DNA of 64,000 bases from a virus. Below are positions 1,743 through 48,318 of this stretch, piece after piece. The notes under the pieces are model-generated. The model did no database searches. It was not told the origin of the DNA and saw only the letters and a program-made list of their open reading frames with translations. Numbering within the stretch: the stretch's first letter is position 1; each line of letters begins with the position of its first letter. A program made the translations under genes and the position numbers. The stretch lies in the IMG/VR virus record IMGVR_UViG_3300025195_000002; one strand, 5' to 3'.

Positions 1743-3077
1743 ATGCGTAAATTCTTTCAAGAACCAGCTGTAGCTAAACCAGCTGTAGTAGCATTAAGCG
1801 CCGATGAGCAGATGGAAGCGATGGTTGCCTCTGAAGAGAGCTTTCAGGAATTCATCCAACTTGAAGCCGAAAACGCTCGAGCTATGGAGATTGCTGCCGG
1901 TTTAGAAAATTTAGCGATGGTTGCTGATCATGTTAAATCTGCGTCTAACACCGACTTGGCTTTCTTTGATGCCGGTATTGACCTTGCCTTAGTAGGCACT
2001 GGTATCTCATCTGAATCTATCGTTCCAGGCCTGGAAGATATGGAAGGTAGCGTGATCTCAACTGAATCTGTAAAAGAAACAGTTGACAAAATCTGGACAG
2101 CGATTAAGAAAGTCATCGAAAACATGTGGAAACAAATCCAGATCTTCTGGGGCAATTTGGTTAAAGCTGCACCTGGTCTGAAACTGCGTGCTGAAGCATT
2201 GTCAGAAAAGGTAGCCGAGTTAGGTTCTGCATCAACTGATGCGAAAACGTTCTCTGCCGGTAATGCGTTAAAGACATTATCTGTTGACGGTAATTTGCCG
2301 AAGAAAGGGTCTGACGTTATCGAAGGTCTGTCTTTGGTTGAATCCATTGCCAGCCACCTTTATGGTAAGTACAAAACTGACATGATCAAGATTGGTAAAG
2401 ACGTTGACTCTGCACTGTCTGCTTTTGATCTGACCTCTATCGATACTGCCAAAAGTTCACTGGATGCAGTAACGTCTGCTTACGCCGGCCTTCATGATCT
2501 TAATGAGTTCAAAGGCGTTAAGATGGTTAAAGTAGGTCGTGATGTACGCTTCAACCGTTCTGAGACTGTTGAAGCTGCCCACCTGCCAACTGACAAATCT
2601 ATCTTCAGTGTAAGCTTCCCGGCTGATGAGTCTGAAGACGTACTGGGTCGTGCTGAGCGTATCCGTAAGTCAACGTTGATGTTGATGGAAACTACTGCCG
2701 GTGACGCTAAAGCGAAAGATAAAGAAGCTGAGATGGAAGTCTTTGCTACTTCTGACGTACTTACTATCGCCGAGCGTTGTGTGGCACTGTCCAGTATGGT
2801 TGCTGATCATGACGCTAAAGCAGTTAAGTCTGTTGCTGACGGTATCATCAAAGCGTCTGATGCGTTGAACAAGAAGTTTAAAGATGCCAGCAAAGAAGAA
2901 GGCGGTGTTGCCTCTGCTTCTAGCTATGTTGATTCTGCAATGAAATTCAACGTGGCATTCACTTCGGTTTCTACTAAGTTCGAAGCCCAGCTCGCGCGTC
3001 TTGCAATGACCACTGTACGTGCAGCGCTGTCTGTTGCGCAGTCTAACTTATCCCAGTATAAGAAAGACAAAGCGTAA
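1743..3077 (+). CDS. Internal head protein, second paralogue
   Basis: 444 aa; same architecture as 339-1655 (AGLE, PGLE, STES then 'VKETVDKIWTAIKKVIENMW..FW'); similar C-terminal helix ending in QYK. Confidence 0.75.
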   Translation: MRKFFQEPAVAKPAVVALSADEQMEAMVASEESFQEFIQLEAENARAMEIAAGLENLAMVADHVKSASNTDLAFFDAGIDLALVGTGISSESIVPGLEDMEGSVISTESVKETVDKIWTAIKKVIENMWKQIQIFWGNLVKAAPGLKLRAEALSEKVAELGSASTDAKTFSAGNALKTLSVDGNLPKKGSDVIEGLSLVESIASHLYGKYKTDMIKIGKDVDSALSAFDLTSIDTAKSSLDAVTSAYAGLHDLNEFKGVKMVKVGRDVRFNRSETVEAAHLPTDKSIFSVSFPADESEDVLGRAERIRKSTLMLMETTAGDAKAKDKEAEMEVFATSDVLTIAERCVALSSMVADHDAKAVKSVADGIIKASDALNKKFKDASKEEGGVASASSYVDSAMKFNVAFTSVSTKFEAQLARLAMTTVRAALSVAQSNLSQYKKDKA

Positions 3078-3116
3078 GTGATGAGCGTCTAAAAAATCCC
3101 AACATCTGGGTCGTAG

Positions 3117-3148
3117 GCTAGGAGGAATTCCTCCTAGCTTTATGCCGT
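3117..3148 (+). terminator. Hairpin + TATGCCGT element
   Basis: GCTAGGAGG-AATT-CCTCCTAGC, then TT, then TATGCCGT (3141-3148). Confidence 0.7.
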
Positions 3149-3153
3149 ATATC

Positions 3154-3445
3154 TATGATGGGATGTGCTGTCATTCGTTCACGCAAACAAGTTGATTATA
3201 TCGTTCTTCCCTGGCAACTTGATATTGTGAACATGGGTGTAGGTTTTGGGTTGGGCTATTCACCTACACCCCTCTTTTCTGACACCCCATCTAACTGTCT
3301 GATGGTAGAGGTAGGTTTTTCCTTTATTTTCCCTATCTCAATCAACGCTCTGGACAAGCGTCCAATGTCAGACAGTGTTTGGCCACTAGTGGTGGCTGCT
3401 AAGAGGGATGGGGGCTGTGATGGTCCCCATCCCTGCTTATGCCGT
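3154..3445 (+). ncRNA. Candidate structured non-coding RNA
   Basis: At least six stems read directly from the sequence (listed in findings). Begins at a TATG (phiKZ late-promoter core) and ends at hairpin+TATGCCGT. The overlapping 110-aa ORF has no RBS. Confidence 0.45.
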
Positions 3446-3520
3446 CAGGGATGGTATGAATTTAAACGTCAGACGTATTACGTATGACTATATAACGATT
3501 TATTTAATGGAATTAACACC

Positions 3521-5056
3521 ATGCCACGTATTGCGATTGATTGCGGCGATAGCTACGATAGCGTTATCCGCCCTACTGTTTTGACGGTAGTAGAACAAGT
3601 AAAGAAGGTGACGGGACTAGGTCGCGTCAAAACGCTATTTACGGGTGATCCAAATAACACACCTCAAGTAGGTAGTCTGATAGACAATCCAGAAAAAGAT
3701 GTTACCTTTACTAACCAGGAATACCTACAGTTAGAAGTACGTACGGAGTATATGGACTCTGATCTTTTAACGAATAATGTTTTTAATCGAAACAACATTC
3801 CTCTTTTTAGAGACATTGACTTAGGTGTGTATATGGCACCGGTAGTCGGACATACCCGTGCTACAATCAGTGTCCGCTATAAAGCGCAAAGTCGTAACGA
3901 TGCAGATAGATGGCTATCTGAAATAAAGCGTCGAACTGCCCAAGGATTTAAAGAACTGACTCATGATGTTGAGTATCATTATCTTATCCCACGCGAGCTA
4001 TTGGTGATCTTAGACCAGATCCATAAAAAACGAGAAGCGGTAGCAGGGTATGGTGAGGATCTCAATCGCTACCTCACCGATCATTTCCATGAGAAAGTTA
4101 CCTGGTTCACGAATCAAAGTGGGCAGCGTAAGGCTTTGGGTGTCAGAGAGAAACAGACGGGGATATTGGGATACTTTAATTTCGATTCCTTGCCTGAAAT
4201 TGAAAAAGGTGAAACAGGTAACTGGATAAGTCAGTTTGATTACATTGTTGAATTTGACAGACCACACTCAGTAGTGATGCAATATCCACTGGTTGTCCAT
4301 AACCAGCTACTTGACACTAAGTATTTTGATGACACTATAGACTTCAACCAAACCCTTGAACTTTATCTAAGTAGTGTTTTTAATCAAGGGATGGATGTCA
4401 CTGTTAATCGCCATCGCCTACCTGCGCTGTCTACTTTATTAGGTTACGCTGTACCTGCTTTTGATGAATGGCTACCGCAAGAGGTCCCTATGTCTACAAC
4501 GACAATGGCTAGAATATTACTGGCTGTGGATGTCGATAACCCTCGCTATTTATGTAACATTGGAGAGCTAGGAGACTTTGCATTAGTTGATGAGGTAATT
4601 ACGTATCTGAAACGCCGTCATGACTTTGCGACAACACTCAAAGCGTCTCCAATATTCTTTAGTCTGTATCAAGATAATACCAGGATGTCTGATACGGTGA
4701 TGCAGATGGATGATCAAGGTAATTTATTTACAACGGTTGATCTATCATTACGTCGAGTATATCACCTTAGAGTAGGTATCTTTAACGATCTAAGTCTGTT
4801 AAATGAGAAAGTATTAGAAGATCTCAGAATGGATGGTGAATTTGCCAAGATACTATTGATCGCACTTGAACCATCATTGCGTGATGATCCATTACTTGAG
4901 TTATTACCCGATGGCCGTTTACCTAAACGTAACTTTTGGGATGCCATTGCCCGTATTAAAGGAACGAACCGACACTACAAGAATAAAATTGAAGTCAATC
5001 GGTTTACTGTTGCCAGTCTATTAATAACCTCGCGTAGACGCTCGCGATACGTGTAA
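3521..5056 (+). CDS. Conserved phiKZ-like virion structural protein
   Basis: 511 aa; first of four contiguous genes after the internal-head paralogues, matching phiKZ gp98-101 synteny as recalled. Confidence 0.55.
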   Translation: MPRIAIDCGDSYDSVIRPTVLTVVEQVKKVTGLGRVKTLFTGDPNNTPQVGSLIDNPEKDVTFTNQEYLQLEVRTEYMDSDLLTNNVFNRNNIPLFRDIDLGVYMAPVVGHTRATISVRYKAQSRNDADRWLSEIKRRTAQGFKELTHDVEYHYLIPRELLVILDQIHKKREAVAGYGEDLNRYLTDHFHEKVTWFTNQSGQRKALGVREKQTGILGYFNFDSLPEIEKGETGNWISQFDYIVEFDRPHSVVMQYPLVVHNQLLDTKYFDDTIDFNQTLELYLSSVFNQGMDVTVNRHRLPALSTLLGYAVPAFDEWLPQEVPMSTTTMARILLAVDVDNPRYLCNIGELGDFALVDEVITYLKRRHDFATTLKASPIFFSLYQDNTRMSDTVMQMDDQGNLFTTVDLSLRRVYHLRVGIFNDLSLLNEKVLEDLRMDGEFAKILLIALEPSLRDDPLLELLPDGRLPKRNFWDAIARIKGTNRHYKNKIEVNRFTVASLLITSRRRSRYV

Positions 5057-8636: not shown

Positions 8637-8668
8637 GGGAAGACTTTCGGGTCTTCCCGTTATGCCCT
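8637..8668 (+). terminator. Hairpin + TATGCCCT element
   Basis: GGGAAGAC-TTTCGG-GTCTTCCC, then GT, then TATGCCCT. Confidence 0.7.
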
Positions 8669-8693
8669 TAAGGAAACTAAAGGTAAAAAAATC

Positions 8694-11764: not shown

Positions 11765-11793
11765 GGGAGGGCTTCGGCCCTCCCCTTATGCCT
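11765..11793 (+). terminator. Hairpin + TATGCCT element
   Basis: GGGAGGGC-TTCG-GCCCTCCC, then CT, then TATGCCT. Confidence 0.75.
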
Positions 11794-11816
11794 GAATTTA
11801 AATAGAGAAATGGTTT

Positions 11817-23553: not shown

Positions 23554-25716
23554 ATGTCCTTATTAAGCATCAAGAAAAAGGCAACCGGTTTAGGTGCCGC
23601 TAAAATGAGCATCCACACGCTTCTGCAGGAACAGGGTGCTGAAATGTCTAACCAGTCTATTGCCAACAACCTGGTATCTCTGGAATCATTGGACGATCAC
23701 GCTCGCTCTGATCTGGAAACGTCTTTTGAACATTGTTCAAATGAACTGAAGACTATCCTGTCTGAAACCATGGGTGAAGGGTTTGAGGTAAGTGACATCG
23801 GTCTGGAAGCCGCTGCCATCACTACTTTGGCAATCGGTAACCCAGCTGCGTACATGCAGTCTGCAACTCGCATTGGTATTGAGGGTATGATTGAATTACC
23901 TTCTTACGGTACTGCCGGTTCAATGGACTATCGTCTGTCTCCGTCAAATGAAGCATTCGACGAAGCTGAACTGCGTAAATTTGCTCCACACTCAATTGTA
24001 TTCAACGCCCTGGCCGCTGTGCAGGACCCGTTTGCTGAAGCATTCTTCCCGACGTACGTTATGTCGCCTGACAATGCTGGCGCTGAAGTATCTGTTCAAC
24101 GTACCATGGTTTTCAATGAAGTTAGCCGTAGCCCTACTGGTCAAGTTACTAACTTCAATAAAGTTAACCTGGTTGAAGCTGTTCAGGATGCCAAAGTCCT
24201 TGAAAACCAAACTACTGCATTGGTTCCAGTTTACCTGGCCGATGACAGCCGCGCTGAATACTTTGTTGACACTGACGTCCTTGCCCCTGTTGATACTAAA
24301 GTTGATGGCGACGAGTTCCAAACTTCTGCACTGCGCATCGATGCACAAATGGACCTGGTTGCAATGGCAACTTCTCCAAACCGCATCAACGCTCAGATCG
24401 ACAGCACTGACTCAATCGACGGTCGTGTTGAACTGAAAACTGTTTACGTTCGTGTACGTGATGCAGCCAACCTGGCTGATCCTGCTACTGGTAACGACGA
24501 AGTATTATCTATCAGCGTTAAAGGTCTGCCACGCACTACCTTCCAGCCGTCTGCTGAAGGCGATAGCCGTGAGATGACTCTTACTTTTGCTAACAACGCT
24601 CTGTTGTTAAGCGATGCGACCAAAGCTGTTGATGGTTCTGCTGCTGACGCGCTGTCTGGTCTGTCTGGTTACACTGCATCTGTTGATATTAAACTGAATG
24701 GTACTATCAACGTTGAAACCGGTGCTCTTGAACTGAACGCGTCTCCAATGCGTGTTAATGGTCTGGTTGATGCAAGCGGTACAAATATCGCTACTGCAAC
24801 TGGTGCTGGTAAGACAGCAATTGATAGCTTCTCTATGGAAGTTATCGGCTACAGCCTGGATGCTCGCCTGACTAATGCGAACCGTCGTACTCGTGGTATC
24901 CTGATCGATCGTACTGAAGTTAAAGAGCGTTACACTGTACCACTGGGTGCACCAATCTCTGCACCTCAGCCAATTCATGGTTCAAGTGACAGCGCTTCTG
25001 ATCTTCGCGCTCTGGTAACTACTGCACGTACTCGTACGTCTAACAACGCTGTGACCACGCTGCTTAACTATGTTGACAGCCTGAAATCAACTGTTGCTGT
25101 TGCCGCTGCGACGGGTGTTACTCCACAAGTACAAGGTATTGGCCGTCTTCTGGTTAAGCCTTACTTCCAGGAAGAAACTATCGATGCAGTTCAGGTAATC
25201 AACTCTACCAAGTCACACGAGAAAGCACAAGACTTCTCTGCGGTATTGGTTGATGCAATCCGTCAAATTGCTTACAAGATGATGGATCGTTCAAACTACG
25301 CTGCAGCGTTGGAAATGGAAACCGGCGGTGCCAACATTAAGCCTAAGTTGATCATCGGTACAGATAACGTTATCGCTCAGCACATCATGGTTTCTGGTGA
25401 TGATCGCACTGCAAGCATCGGCATGGACTTTGAAGTTGTATCTTCACCTGACTCTCGTATGAGTGGTAAGATCGTTCTTGGTTTCGGTCGCGGTGCAAGC
25501 GGTAAGCCTGACGCACTTGGTTTTGGTACTCACTTCTACATGCCTGAGCTTACTAGCACAGCGCAAGTATCACGTGACAATGCTACTACCAAAGAAACTC
25601 AGGTACAGCCTCGTGATCTTCACGTTCCTCATCTGCCAGTATTGGCTGTGATCAACGTTGAGAACATCGACCAGGTCTTCACCGATTACATTAAAGGTGT
25701 TCCTGCACGTAGCTAA
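23554..25716 (+). CDS. Major capsid protein (phiKZ gp120-like)
   Basis: 720 aa; propeptide with SLE/GLE/SNE cleavage motifs; 'QDPFAEAFFPT', 'N.N.R.RG.L.D', 'TKETQVQPR.LH.PHLPVL'; strongly biased codon usage. Confidence 0.9.
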   Translation: MSLLSIKKKATGLGAAKMSIHTLLQEQGAEMSNQSIANNLVSLESLDDHARSDLETSFEHCSNELKTILSETMGEGFEVSDIGLEAAAITTLAIGNPAAYMQSATRIGIEGMIELPSYGTAGSMDYRLSPSNEAFDEAELRKFAPHSIVFNALAAVQDPFAEAFFPTYVMSPDNAGAEVSVQRTMVFNEVSRSPTGQVTNFNKVNLVEAVQDAKVLENQTTALVPVYLADDSRAEYFVDTDVLAPVDTKVDGDEFQTSALRIDAQMDLVAMATSPNRINAQIDSTDSIDGRVELKTVYVRVRDAANLADPATGNDEVLSISVKGLPRTTFQPSAEGDSREMTLTFANNALLLSDATKAVDGSAADALSGLSGYTASVDIKLNGTINVETGALELNASPMRVNGLVDASGTNIATATGAGKTAIDSFSMEVIGYSLDARLTNANRRTRGILIDRTEVKERYTVPLGAPISAPQPIHGSSDSASDLRALVTTARTRTSNNAVTTLLNYVDSLKSTVAVAAATGVTPQVQGIGRLLVKPYFQEETIDAVQVINSTKSHEKAQDFSAVLVDAIRQIAYKMMDRSNYAAALEMETGGANIKPKLIIGTDNVIAQHIMVSGDDRTASIGMDFEVVSSPDSRMSGKIVLGFGRGASGKPDALGFGTHFYMPELTSTAQVSRDNATTKETQVQPRDLHVPHLPVLAVINVENIDQVFTDYIKGVPARS

Positions 25717-25839
25717 GCTACACCGGGGAGGGTAACCTCCCCACCGTTTCATTAACAATCTGGTTAAGATGCGTTAGCGTGTCGACAAGAAAAAAGAAGT
25801 ACGGCATAAACTGCCGATAAAGCCACGGACGTGGTAAAG

Positions 25840-25885
25840 TAGAACCCAGGGCATTTAGTCCTGGGTTCTATGCCGTCTATGCCGT
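25840..25885 (+). terminator. Hairpin followed by two tandem TATGCCGT
   Basis: TAGAACCCAGG-GCATTTAGT-CCTGGGTTCTA; TATGCCGT at 25869 and 25878; reverse-strand copy at 25801-25808. Confidence 0.65.
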
Positions 25886-25900
25886 CTCTAGGTTTTTTCA

Positions 25901-25913
25901 CACCTACATTACT
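25901..25913 (+). promoter_or_regulatory. Early-promoter-like motif CACCTACATTACT
   Basis: Identical to 8448-8460; 50 nt upstream of the 25964 start. Confidence 0.55.
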
Positions 25914-25963
25914 ATATTGATTCAAGTGCTAAGACCTTATCAGGATTTAACAAGAGAACGCCA

Positions 25964-31250: not shown

Positions 31251-31308
31251 TATGCCGTTATAACGGCATATTGTAGGGTAACCTAGGTTACCCTACAAGT
31301 TATGCCTT
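31251..31308. repeat. Two abutting perfect palindromes at a convergent junction
   Basis: TATGCCGTTATAACGGCATA (20 bp), then TTGTAGGGTAACCTAGGTTACCCTACAA (28 bp), then TATGCCTT. Confidence 0.8.
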
Positions 31309-48264: not shown

Positions 48265-48318
48265 CGGCATAAAAGAACCAGCCCGTAAAGGCTGGTTCTT
48301 AGCTATGTTTCTTTTTTG
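48264..48318. terminator. Bidirectional hairpin (TATGCCGT on minus, T tract on plus)
   Basis: ACGGCATA, then AAGAACCAGCC-CGTAAA-GGCTGGTTCTT, then AGCTATGTTTCTTTTTT. Confidence 0.75.

Follow-up and report, generated by a model that had tools for sequence, protein, structure and literature searches.

What occupies the 443-nt gap (3078-3520) that separates the internal-head-protein block from the gp98-like block in a divergent phiKZ-like (Chimalliviridae) jumbo phage, and is it a gene in its own right? The phage is uncultured and is represented by metagenome assemblies only; the window examined here is a stretch of 64,000 nucleotides from IMG/VR virus record IMGVR_UViG_3300025195_000002. A preliminary description of this DNA, made from the sequence alone, proposed a structured noncoding RNA (ncRNA) at 3154-3445. 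The flanking genes lie on the + strand, as does the RNA, and the gp98 homologue is followed on its 3' side by homologues of gp99-gp101, with the gene order as in phiKZ. The genes that frame the gap are as follows.

339-1655, internal head protein gene (PHROG matches; PF12699, phiKZ_IP)
1743-3077, + strand, internal head protein gene, the last before the RNA unit (PHROG matches; PF12699, phiKZ_IP, on the identical gene of relatives)
3521-5056, + strand, homologue of phiKZ gp98 (phrog_3289), the downstream gene

Relatives of this locus were found by protein-guided searches with the gp98-like gene and fall into five lineages in all.

Lineage A: the window and L002-L004
Lineage B: L006, L012, L015-L017 and L019 (75% protein identity)
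Lineage C: L007, L008, L011, L018 and L020 (75% protein identity)
Lineage D: L001, L009, L013, L021 and the partial L010 (about 51% protein identity)
Lineage E: L014 (29% protein identity)

At this position, about 410-450 nt separate the genes of lineages A-D, with the same frame in each, and a gap of this kind is absent in lineage E, phiKZ, Eowyn and Goslar. The frame consists of elements that have been characterized in phiKZ. The phiKZ terminator motif BCCYCCCCHWWDGGGRRGGBYTTATKYYGT was mapped by ONT-cappable-seq (PMC10914365), and this intrinsic terminator type is shared by 201phi2-1 (PMC11512511). The phiKZ late promoter is TATG, the G of which is +1 (PMC4666361, PMC12809450). The corresponding elements of the window, together with the RNA that they enclose, are listed here.

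3117-3148, + strand, terminator T1: a perfect 11-bp hairpin GCTAGGAGGAA/TTCCTCCTAGC (3117-3138), then TTTATGCCGT
3154-3157, + strand, TATG, candidate core promoter of the non-virion RNA polymerase (nvRNAP), with G3157 as the presumed +1; conserved in lineages A-D
3157-3439, + strand, predicted ncRNA body of ~283 nt (full-length matches of CM R1 in lineages B and C; covariation; 44 G-U vs 9 A-C)
3400-3445, + strand, terminator T2: TAAG, a 13-bp hairpin AGGGATGGGGGCT/GGTCCCCATCCCT and CTTA, then TGCCGT; motif CTTATGCCGT
3455-3467, + strand, TATGAATTTAAAC, putative late promoter that would serve the downstream gene and is not part of the RNA unit

Similar to phiKZ-type terminators, T1 and T2 consist of a GC-rich stem-loop followed by TTAT and KYYGT, a likeness that concerns the boundaries of the RNA and not its body; the terminator tail of the present phage, TATGCCGT, is stricter than the phiKZ motif. 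The T2 hairpin spans 3404-3434 and has a stem of 13(+4) bp, or 17 bp. The presence of a phiKZ-type motif at both sites suggests that the head-protein operon ends at T1 and the structured unit at T2. From T1 to T2, the two TATGCCGT motifs are 297, 293, 297 and 300 nt apart in lineages A, B, C and D. The framing put forward at the outset, namely the T1 hairpin with TTTATGCCGT, the TATG at 3154-3157 at the start, and the hairpin at 3404-3434 with CTTATGCCGT at the end, is present as described. The closing signal, a hairpin followed by TTATGCCGT, is real, but it is a generic phiKZ-type terminator and not an end mark specific to this transcript, since TATGCCGT directly follows a GC-rich hairpin at 13 of its 13 sites in the window. 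T1 and T2 aside, the eleven remaining copies are located at gene ends, including the ends of convergent genes (pairs at 31251/31270 and at 48271), which are places where a promoter is not needed.

A second TATG closely following the terminator motif is found only at T1, at T2, and at a tandem duplicated motif (25869/25878). The TATG at 3154-3157 sits 13 nt after the terminator's own TATG, a spacing kept in lineages A-D, and the first long-range helix of the RNA, P0, begins exactly at G3157; the TATG inside T1 (3141-3144) is an alternative start. Assignment of a promoter draws on this four-nucleotide motif and on analogy with phiKZ and is putative. Beyond T2, GATGGTATGAATTTAAAC is conserved in lineages A-C and parallels CTTATGATCTTAAAC, located 5' of phiKZ gp98, and GATGGTATGAAT of this post-T2 element is invariant in the same lineages. 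The gp97-gp98 gap of phiKZ is 83 nt long and contains only a hairpin, TTTTATGCTGT and CTTATGATCTTAAAC. As the phiKZ gap is a plain terminator-promoter junction, the RNA gives the impression of a self-contained transcription unit that was inserted, with the order T1, TATG, the ~283-nt RNA, T2, TATG with AATTTAAAC, and the gp98-like gene. On the simplest reading of these sequences, a unit comprising promoter, RNA and T2 would have been inserted into the ancestral junction, leaving T1 on its 5' side and the gp98 promoter on its 3' side. The RNA is probably a transcription unit of its own.

The gap also contains an ATG-initiated frame of 110 codons (3155-3487), which is open in the window and offers a protein-coding alternative in which this or another small ORF is the functional product. 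The preliminary description had singled out protein-level conservation of this ORF as evidence against an RNA. Comparative data refute the coding reading, leaving it with a negligible probability. In L002, at most 54 codons of the frame stay open, and lineages B, C and D have no open frame and carry indels whose lengths are not divisible by three. The ATG at 3155 is not preceded by a Shine-Dalgarno sequence, the 110-aa ORF has no match to a PHROG family, and gene callers annotate nothing in the RNA region on any related contig. Substitutions across the region are RNA-like, being wobble-preserving and compensatory. The ORF also shows no similarity to a small gene that precedes the homologue in Goslar. 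The ORF is spurious, and the 443-nt gap is without a conserved ORF.

The stability of the RNA was assessed against shuffled sequence and against the rest of the window. On the + strand, 3154-3445 folds with -114.7 kcal/mol, compared to -86.2 +/- 5.3 kcal/mol for dinucleotide shuffles (z -5.41), and 0 of 200 shuffles are as good. The - strand folds similarly well (z -6.36), which is expected because the DNA is hairpin-rich. In a scan of 638 overlapping 287-nt segments over the 64 kb, regressed on GC content, the RNA region ranks 1/638 for stability, at -4.0 to -4.3 SD. The region had been called GC-richer than other intergenic DNA; its GC content is raised, but only slightly (0.47 vs about 0.39-0.46 nearby).

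All seven stems listed in the preliminary description were found in the sequence at the coordinates given there, and comparison with relatives reveals an additional helix, P0. The resulting architecture consists of two multi-helix domains, then the hairpin P4, then the terminator hairpin. In domain I, P0 closes P1/P1b and P2, while in domain II the long-range helix P3 closes P3a and P3b. This architecture is common to lineages A, B and C in independent MFE folds. The elements are:

3157-3173, + strand, 5' strand of P0, GATGGG .. G .. TGTCA, which pairs with 3280-3291 and closes domain I
3177-3232, + strand, P1 (GTTCACG/TGTGAAC) and P1b (CAAGTTG/CAACTTG), with a large loop containing conserved YUUCC(C)UG
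3235-3271, + strand, P2 hairpin GGGTGTAGGT..ACCTACACCC, with internal TGG/CTA
3280-3291, + strand, 3' strand of P0, TGACA C CCCATC; a linker rich in pyrimidines (3272-3279) lies on its 5' side
3294-3376, + strand, domain II, with P3 ACTGTCTGAT/GTCAGACAGT enclosing GGT/ATC, P3a and P3b
within 3294-3376, + strand, P3a, GAGGTAGG/CCTATCTC
3345-3349/3357-3361, + strand, P3b, ACGCT/AGCGT, with loop CTGGACA
3381-3397, + strand, P4 hairpin GGCCACT/GGTGGCT (100% paired, 5 pairs changed on both sides)

The conservation of this architecture was probed with CM R1, which was built from lineage A alone and gives full-length matches in lineage B (136-138 bits) and lineage C (103-105 bits); no CM matches are found in phiKZ, Eowyn, Goslar or L014. 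In the CM alignment (A7), which is fitted to the model and whose three well-aligned lineages represent few independent events, 92.6% of pair cells are canonical compared to 35-50% in slid controls, with partners displaced by 1-3 columns, 35 of the 89 pairs have changed on both sides compared to at most 8 when slid and 22.0 +/- 2.5 in shuffles (0 of 500 reach the observed value), and the covariation score is 0.385 compared to at most 0.109 in controls. P3 has 10 of 10 pairs changed on both sides in this alignment, and P1 with P1b is 100% paired with 5 pairs changed on both sides. Because A7 was fitted to the model, the pairs were recounted on a structure-blind MAFFT alignment (A4) with the RNAalifold structure, where 17 pairs have changed on both sides compared to at most 5 when slid. 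RNAalifold applied to A7 recovers the same helices. Stem cells include 44 G-U and only 9 A-C combinations, and an excess of this size indicates that pairing is selected in the + strand RNA.

The same pattern is observed at short and at long evolutionary distances. L002 is 95% identical to the window across the RNA and 96-97% identical in the flanking genes, and 6 of the 7 substitutions at paired positions keep pairing by wobble; all three substitutions in P4 preserve pairing (G-U to A-U, C-G to U-G, U-G to C-G). Between lineages, identity is 0.56-0.67 in the RNA vs 0.33-0.50 at four-fold sites of the flanking genes in the A-B and A-C comparisons, and compensatory substitutions preserve the fold in relatives whose synonymous sites are near saturation. 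P3b illustrates this behavior, reading ACGCT/AGCGT in lineage A, ACGGT/ACCGT in lineage B and ATAGT/ACTAT in lineage C, with the loop CTGGACA conserved. Results from these comparisons uphold the proposal of a conserved structured ncRNA on the + strand, the architecture of which is kept through many compensatory changes in relatives, and we are highly confident that this RNA is real.

Two further proposals about its structure do not hold beyond the window's own lineage. A TGGAC/GTCCA stem had been drawn in domain II; it exists in lineage A only, and the conserved helix there is ACGCT/AGCGT with its CTGGACA loop. It had also been suggested that the segment 3366-3376 pairs with either of two partners in a mutually exclusive switch or pseudoknot. 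Both alternative partners are present in the window sequence, but the alternative duplex is retained in lineage A alone, with -9.5 kcal/mol in the window, -6.9 in L002, -2.3 in lineage B and -2.6 in lineage C, whereas the competing helices are kept in all (P0, -9.5 to -13.5 kcal/mol; P3, -12.4 to -15.8 kcal/mol). The alternative duplex in lineage A is best regarded as a by-product, because TGTCA occurs in both P0 and P3. A scan for tertiary contacts and pseudoknots returned nothing convincing, only wobble-rich candidates without covariation, such as the P2 loop UUUGGG with the P3b loop YCUGGA.

In contrast to the other helices, all of which vary among lineages A-C, P2 is nearly fixed. Its core (3237-3269, GTGTAGGT..ACCTACAC) comprises 33 nt of stem and loops common to lineages A-C with a C/T change at 3261, and reads GTGTAGGTTTTGGGTTGGGCTATTYACCTACAC, where Y is C or T; the basal pairs 3235/3271 and 3236/3270 vary, and either covary or break. 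Further conserved elements are the U-rich loop of P3a, the CUGGACA of P3b, and the YUUCC(C)UG of the P1b loop, which is present in lineage D as well. A P2 24-mer is found only in lineage B and C contigs, and pattern searches with P2 and with the 5' end returned only six IMG/VR contigs that were already known. A G-quadruplex in P2 was ruled out by reading, as the first G-tract is lost in lineage C.

Invariance leaves P2 itself without covariation support and would be just as compatible with a DNA operator. In place of a functional RNA, the region could be an element that acts as DNA, such as operator palindromes, an origin or a packaging signal, or it could be what is left of a mobile element or intron. 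The invariant 10-bp inverted repeat of P2, with its 17-bp spacing, would be an appropriate site for a DNA-binding protein that forms dimers, folding of the - strand is as favorable as that of the + strand (z -6.4), and the unit has 9-bp TTATGCCGT repeats on either side, as a target duplication would produce. This explanation is nonetheless very unlikely. The ratio of G-U to A-C combinations points to selection on + strand RNA pairing, the long-range helices P0 and P3 covary, and the unit occurs as one copy in the window with no repeats of at least 14 nt elsewhere. The TTATGCCGT repeat is the general terminator tail, and no intron or ribozyme family is matched. Searches with CM R1 and CM R2 likewise returned no second copy in the window or in the related loci.

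Lineage D carries an equally stable fold at the same site (z -5.35), and the changes relative to L010 are wobble-compatible or compensatory. With filters off, it matches CM R2 weakly (14.4 bits, E 5e-5 for 1 kb), and with default filters it gives no match. Either the lineage D RNA is homologous to the others but has diverged greatly, or the slot has been taken over by another RNA.

A conserved + strand RNA is compatible with more than one mode of action, and two of these place its function in cis. In the first, the gp98-like virion operon would have the RNA as its 5' leader, with T2 as a conditional terminator: opening of P0 would free its 3' strand, CCCCATC(T), to pair with the 5' arm of T2, resulting in read-through. 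Precedent exists, as most ncRNA candidates of phiKZ and 201phi2-1 are premature-termination products of 5'-UTRs with a read-through mode (PMC10914365, PMC11512511). In addition, 3285-3292 can pair with 3406-3413 (8 bp by hand, 7 bp by repeat listing), and hand pairing gives incomplete counterparts of 5 bp in lineage B and 7/8 in lineage C. Three copies of GGGATGG are present: one close to the 5' end, one within the arm of T2 and one beyond T2. The proposed anti-terminator, however, is at most 8 bp, which makes it far weaker than T2 with its 17 bp, and is located 110 nt 5' of T2, and the complementarity is trivial, arising from the likeness of the P0 and T2 5' strands. Furthermore, a conserved promoter-like element (TATG with AATTTAAAC) follows T2, just as one precedes phiKZ gp98, and with such an element between T2 and the gp98-like gene, the gene would not need a leader. 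No Rfam riboswitch or leader is matched. Attenuation by this mechanism is, in our view, rather unlikely.

The second cis-acting explanation treats the RNA as a structured 3' extension or insulator. Here T1 would be leaky, head-protein transcripts would end at T2, and the fold would protect their 3' ends or insulate the two operons with no function in trans. The region does lie directly 3' of highly expressed head genes and between two tandem terminators, and a strong generic structure would serve such a purpose. Stability alone leaves unexplained, though, the 33-nt P2 core common to lineages A-C, the conserved loops, the conserved three-way-junction architecture, and the TATG placed exactly at the start of P0; no other terminator in the window bears such an appendix. 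We consider this explanation improbable, and less probable than attenuation.

The remaining reading, which we favor by a modest degree when its steps are taken together, is that of a stand-alone, trans-acting structured RNA recognized through P2 and the conserved loops. In this scheme, which is drawn from phiKZ biochemistry and transcript maps, the non-virion RNA polymerase would start at the conserved TATG (at G3157 or, less likely, G3144) and stop at T2, at about 3437-3440. The product would be a discrete RNA of ~283 nt (283-296 nt predicted) made in middle or late infection, and the gp98-like gene would be served by its own TATG promoter 3' of T2. The unit may be described as an 'RNA moron' that would have duplicated the terminator-promoter module seen at the phiKZ site. 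The weakest step is the proposed action in trans, which the RNA would exert in its folded form. The presence of a few conserved elements on a covarying scaffold is suggestive of sequence-specific recognition, in which a protein, or else another nucleic acid, would probably contact the P2 hairpin together with the pyrimidine-rich and CUGGACA loops; the remaining helices would serve only as scaffold and would thus be free to covary. Against the proposal of a stand-alone RNA, T1 could be leaky, which would make the RNA a read-through 3' extension, and a function is not indicated by any partner, target or motif.

Searches for a known family or target were carried out on several fronts. Rfam 15, queried with the window at E up to 10, returned miRNA models as the best hits, with 19 bits compared to gathering thresholds of 74-86, so that no family (pRNA, 6S, riboswitches, ribozymes, introns, ROOL and GOLLD included) is matched, and for lineages C and D gave nothing at E <=1, only sub-threshold miRNA and PYLIS noise. 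ARAGORN detected no tRNA or tmRNA, comparison of the gap with 50,697 phage records by blastn in 'distant' mode produced no match, and a P2 22-mer, used as a probe for host mimicry, is absent from 185,579 species genomes. Three 13-mer complementarities to the RNA occur in the window, where about 0.5 would be expected by estimate; the one that involves P2 is not kept in relatives, and no conserved antisense target was found. GGA is not enriched (3 vs 3.4-3.6 expected), providing no sign of a CsrA/RsmA sponge, and there is no conserved match of at least 6 nt to the complement of the 16S 3' tail. A DGR template was ruled out, as no repeat of at least 14 nt exists elsewhere in the window.

Within the favored reading, a more specific and decidedly speculative possibility, which we regard as improbable, is that the RNA is part of a phage ribonucleoprotein of a new class that acts in trans, and that it is made late in the phage nucleus and recognized via P2. 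Such a component could act in assembly of the head or inner body, a role suggested by the position of the RNA among the clustered internal-head-protein genes; alternatively, it could serve as a decoy for a host defence that binds or targets RNA. If this were true, the different RNA of the same length found in the same slot in lineage D would represent an exchangeable 'RNA cassette'.

Structured RNAs of phages are known from other systems. In the preliminary description, a packaging or assembly RNA, a protein sponge and an anti-defence RNA were named as conceivable roles. The phi29 prohead (packaging) RNA (RF00044, 174 nt) is a phage-encoded structured RNA of comparable size, and the position of the locus among head genes prompts the comparison, but it gives no Rfam match here at E up to 10 and belongs to an unrelated phage family with different packaging machinery; the intermolecular loop-loop pairing that defines pRNA rings finds no evidence in the present RNA. 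ROOL (RF03087) and GOLLD (RF01998) are likewise phage or prophage structured ncRNAs that emerged from comparative genomics. These RNAs are 500-800 nt long and form RNA-only multimers, whereas the present RNA is much smaller, has no Rfam match, and has no self-complementary loop that could be identified.

Nucleus-forming jumbo phages serve as models in cell biology and as candidates for therapy, and their RNA biology is almost unexplored. An RNA with defined boundaries, helices and an invariant hairpin is ready to be synthesized, probed and used as bait, although the clade that carries it is small and uncultured. By analogy with phiKZ, the locus would represent a lineage-specific, self-contained ncRNA gene in a phiKZ-like jumbo phage, and its sequence context suggests that Chimalliviridae can acquire stand-alone RNA genes within a conserved virion gene block.

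The closest parallels come from the same virus family. In phiKZ and 201phi2-1, ONT-cappable-seq and Grad-seq data have revealed short, terminator-delimited ncRNAs that were confirmed by northern blotting; the candidates are 71-196 nt long, within a screen limit of 250 nt, form one or two hairpins (PMC10914365, PMC11512511), and owe their discovery chiefly to transcript mapping. Similar to what is predicted for the present RNA, these have a phage promoter on the 5' side and end in a hairpin and TTAT(KYYGT) just 5' of a gene, often a virion gene. Two features of those candidates also recur here, namely a putative TATG promoter motif at the 5' end and the lack of an ORF with a Shine-Dalgarno sequence. 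The kind of RNA is therefore already known, as terminator-delimited ncRNA candidates in phiKZ and 201phi2-1. What is new is the RNA family, its bigger and more elaborate fold, the covariation support, and its layout as an independent unit at what is a plain junction in phiKZ. In contrast to the phiKZ and 201phi2-1 ncRNAs, which are conserved in sequence within a genus and have no sequence or model similarity to the present RNA, the RNA described here is ~283 nt long, has two multi-helix junction domains, covaries strongly across deep divergence, and is followed by a separate promoter-like element for the downstream gene. Its predicted length of 283-296 nt exceeds the 250-nt size filter of those screens.

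The slot between the genes for an internal head protein and the gp98-like protein, which in the window holds the predicted RNA unit (3157..3439, + strand), also holds an RNA in lineage D of the metagenomic relatives (L001:3658-3945; also L009, L013, L021 and the partial L010). The terminators there are as in the window, and the 300 nt between the motifs represent an equal length. The sequence and 3' domain of the lineage D RNA are largely unlike those of the window RNA, and it folds equally well. Either the slot is a possible cassette in which RNAs are exchanged, or its RNA may diverge very fast.

GGGATGG/GATGGG occurs three times, at the RNA 5' end (3157-3164), in the 5' arm of the terminator T2 (3404-3413) and directly past T2 (3446-3454), where it adjoins the next TATG, a candidate late promoter core. 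Any of these copies can pair with the T2 3' arm (inverted repeats I6 and I11; the 5' copy by hand pairing). They may reflect a duplicated terminator-promoter module or a common recognition element.

The window contains 13 terminators consisting of a hairpin and TATGCCGT, listed here with a further hairpin ahead of T1, the terminator preceding the RNA unit.

3141, 3438, 15161, 25869, 25878, 31251, 38260, 44201; + strand; hairpin and TATGCCGT terminators
48271, 44396, 31270, 25808, 21270; - strand; hairpin and TATGCCGT terminators
3093-3111; small hairpin CCCAACATCTGGG in the head-gene 3' UTR, ahead of T1

At 31251/31270, convergent genes lie on either side of a palindrome made by both terminator motifs themselves, and at 25869/25878 the motif is a tandem duplicate. 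The latter pair falls within 25601-25963, which ranks second in stability outside the RNA locus (-3.3 SD in the GC-corrected MFE scan). Both strands of this 247-nt gap carry terminator hairpins, and TATGCCGT is duplicated in it; it could be a cluster of terminators acting in both directions, or a further small RNA.

Read on the - strand, the 3093-3111 hairpin is followed by ATTTTTTAGA, forming a canonical U-tract terminator that points toward the RNA unit; AAATCCCA..ATCTGGGTC is kept in lineages A-C. Antisense transcription into the head genes could be stopped there. Between the two internal-head-protein genes (1656-1742), the hairpin TAGGAGGAGGTTACTCCTCCTA lacks the TATGCCGT tail, with CTCCCTGTTATTT next; it could act as a weaker terminator that needs no tail, or mark a processing site.

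Because the only TATG upstream of genes 8694 and 11817 sits within a terminator tail (8660-8693, TTATGCCCT; 11787-11816, TTATGCCTG), late transcription in this phage may also start at the terminator TATG. The motifs TATATTAC and TACATTAC, which resemble the AT-rich phiKZ early promoter, occur at ~15195, ~25900, ~44230 and ~8455, 3' of several terminators and 5' of small genes; this placement suggests that early transcription units are interspersed among late ones.
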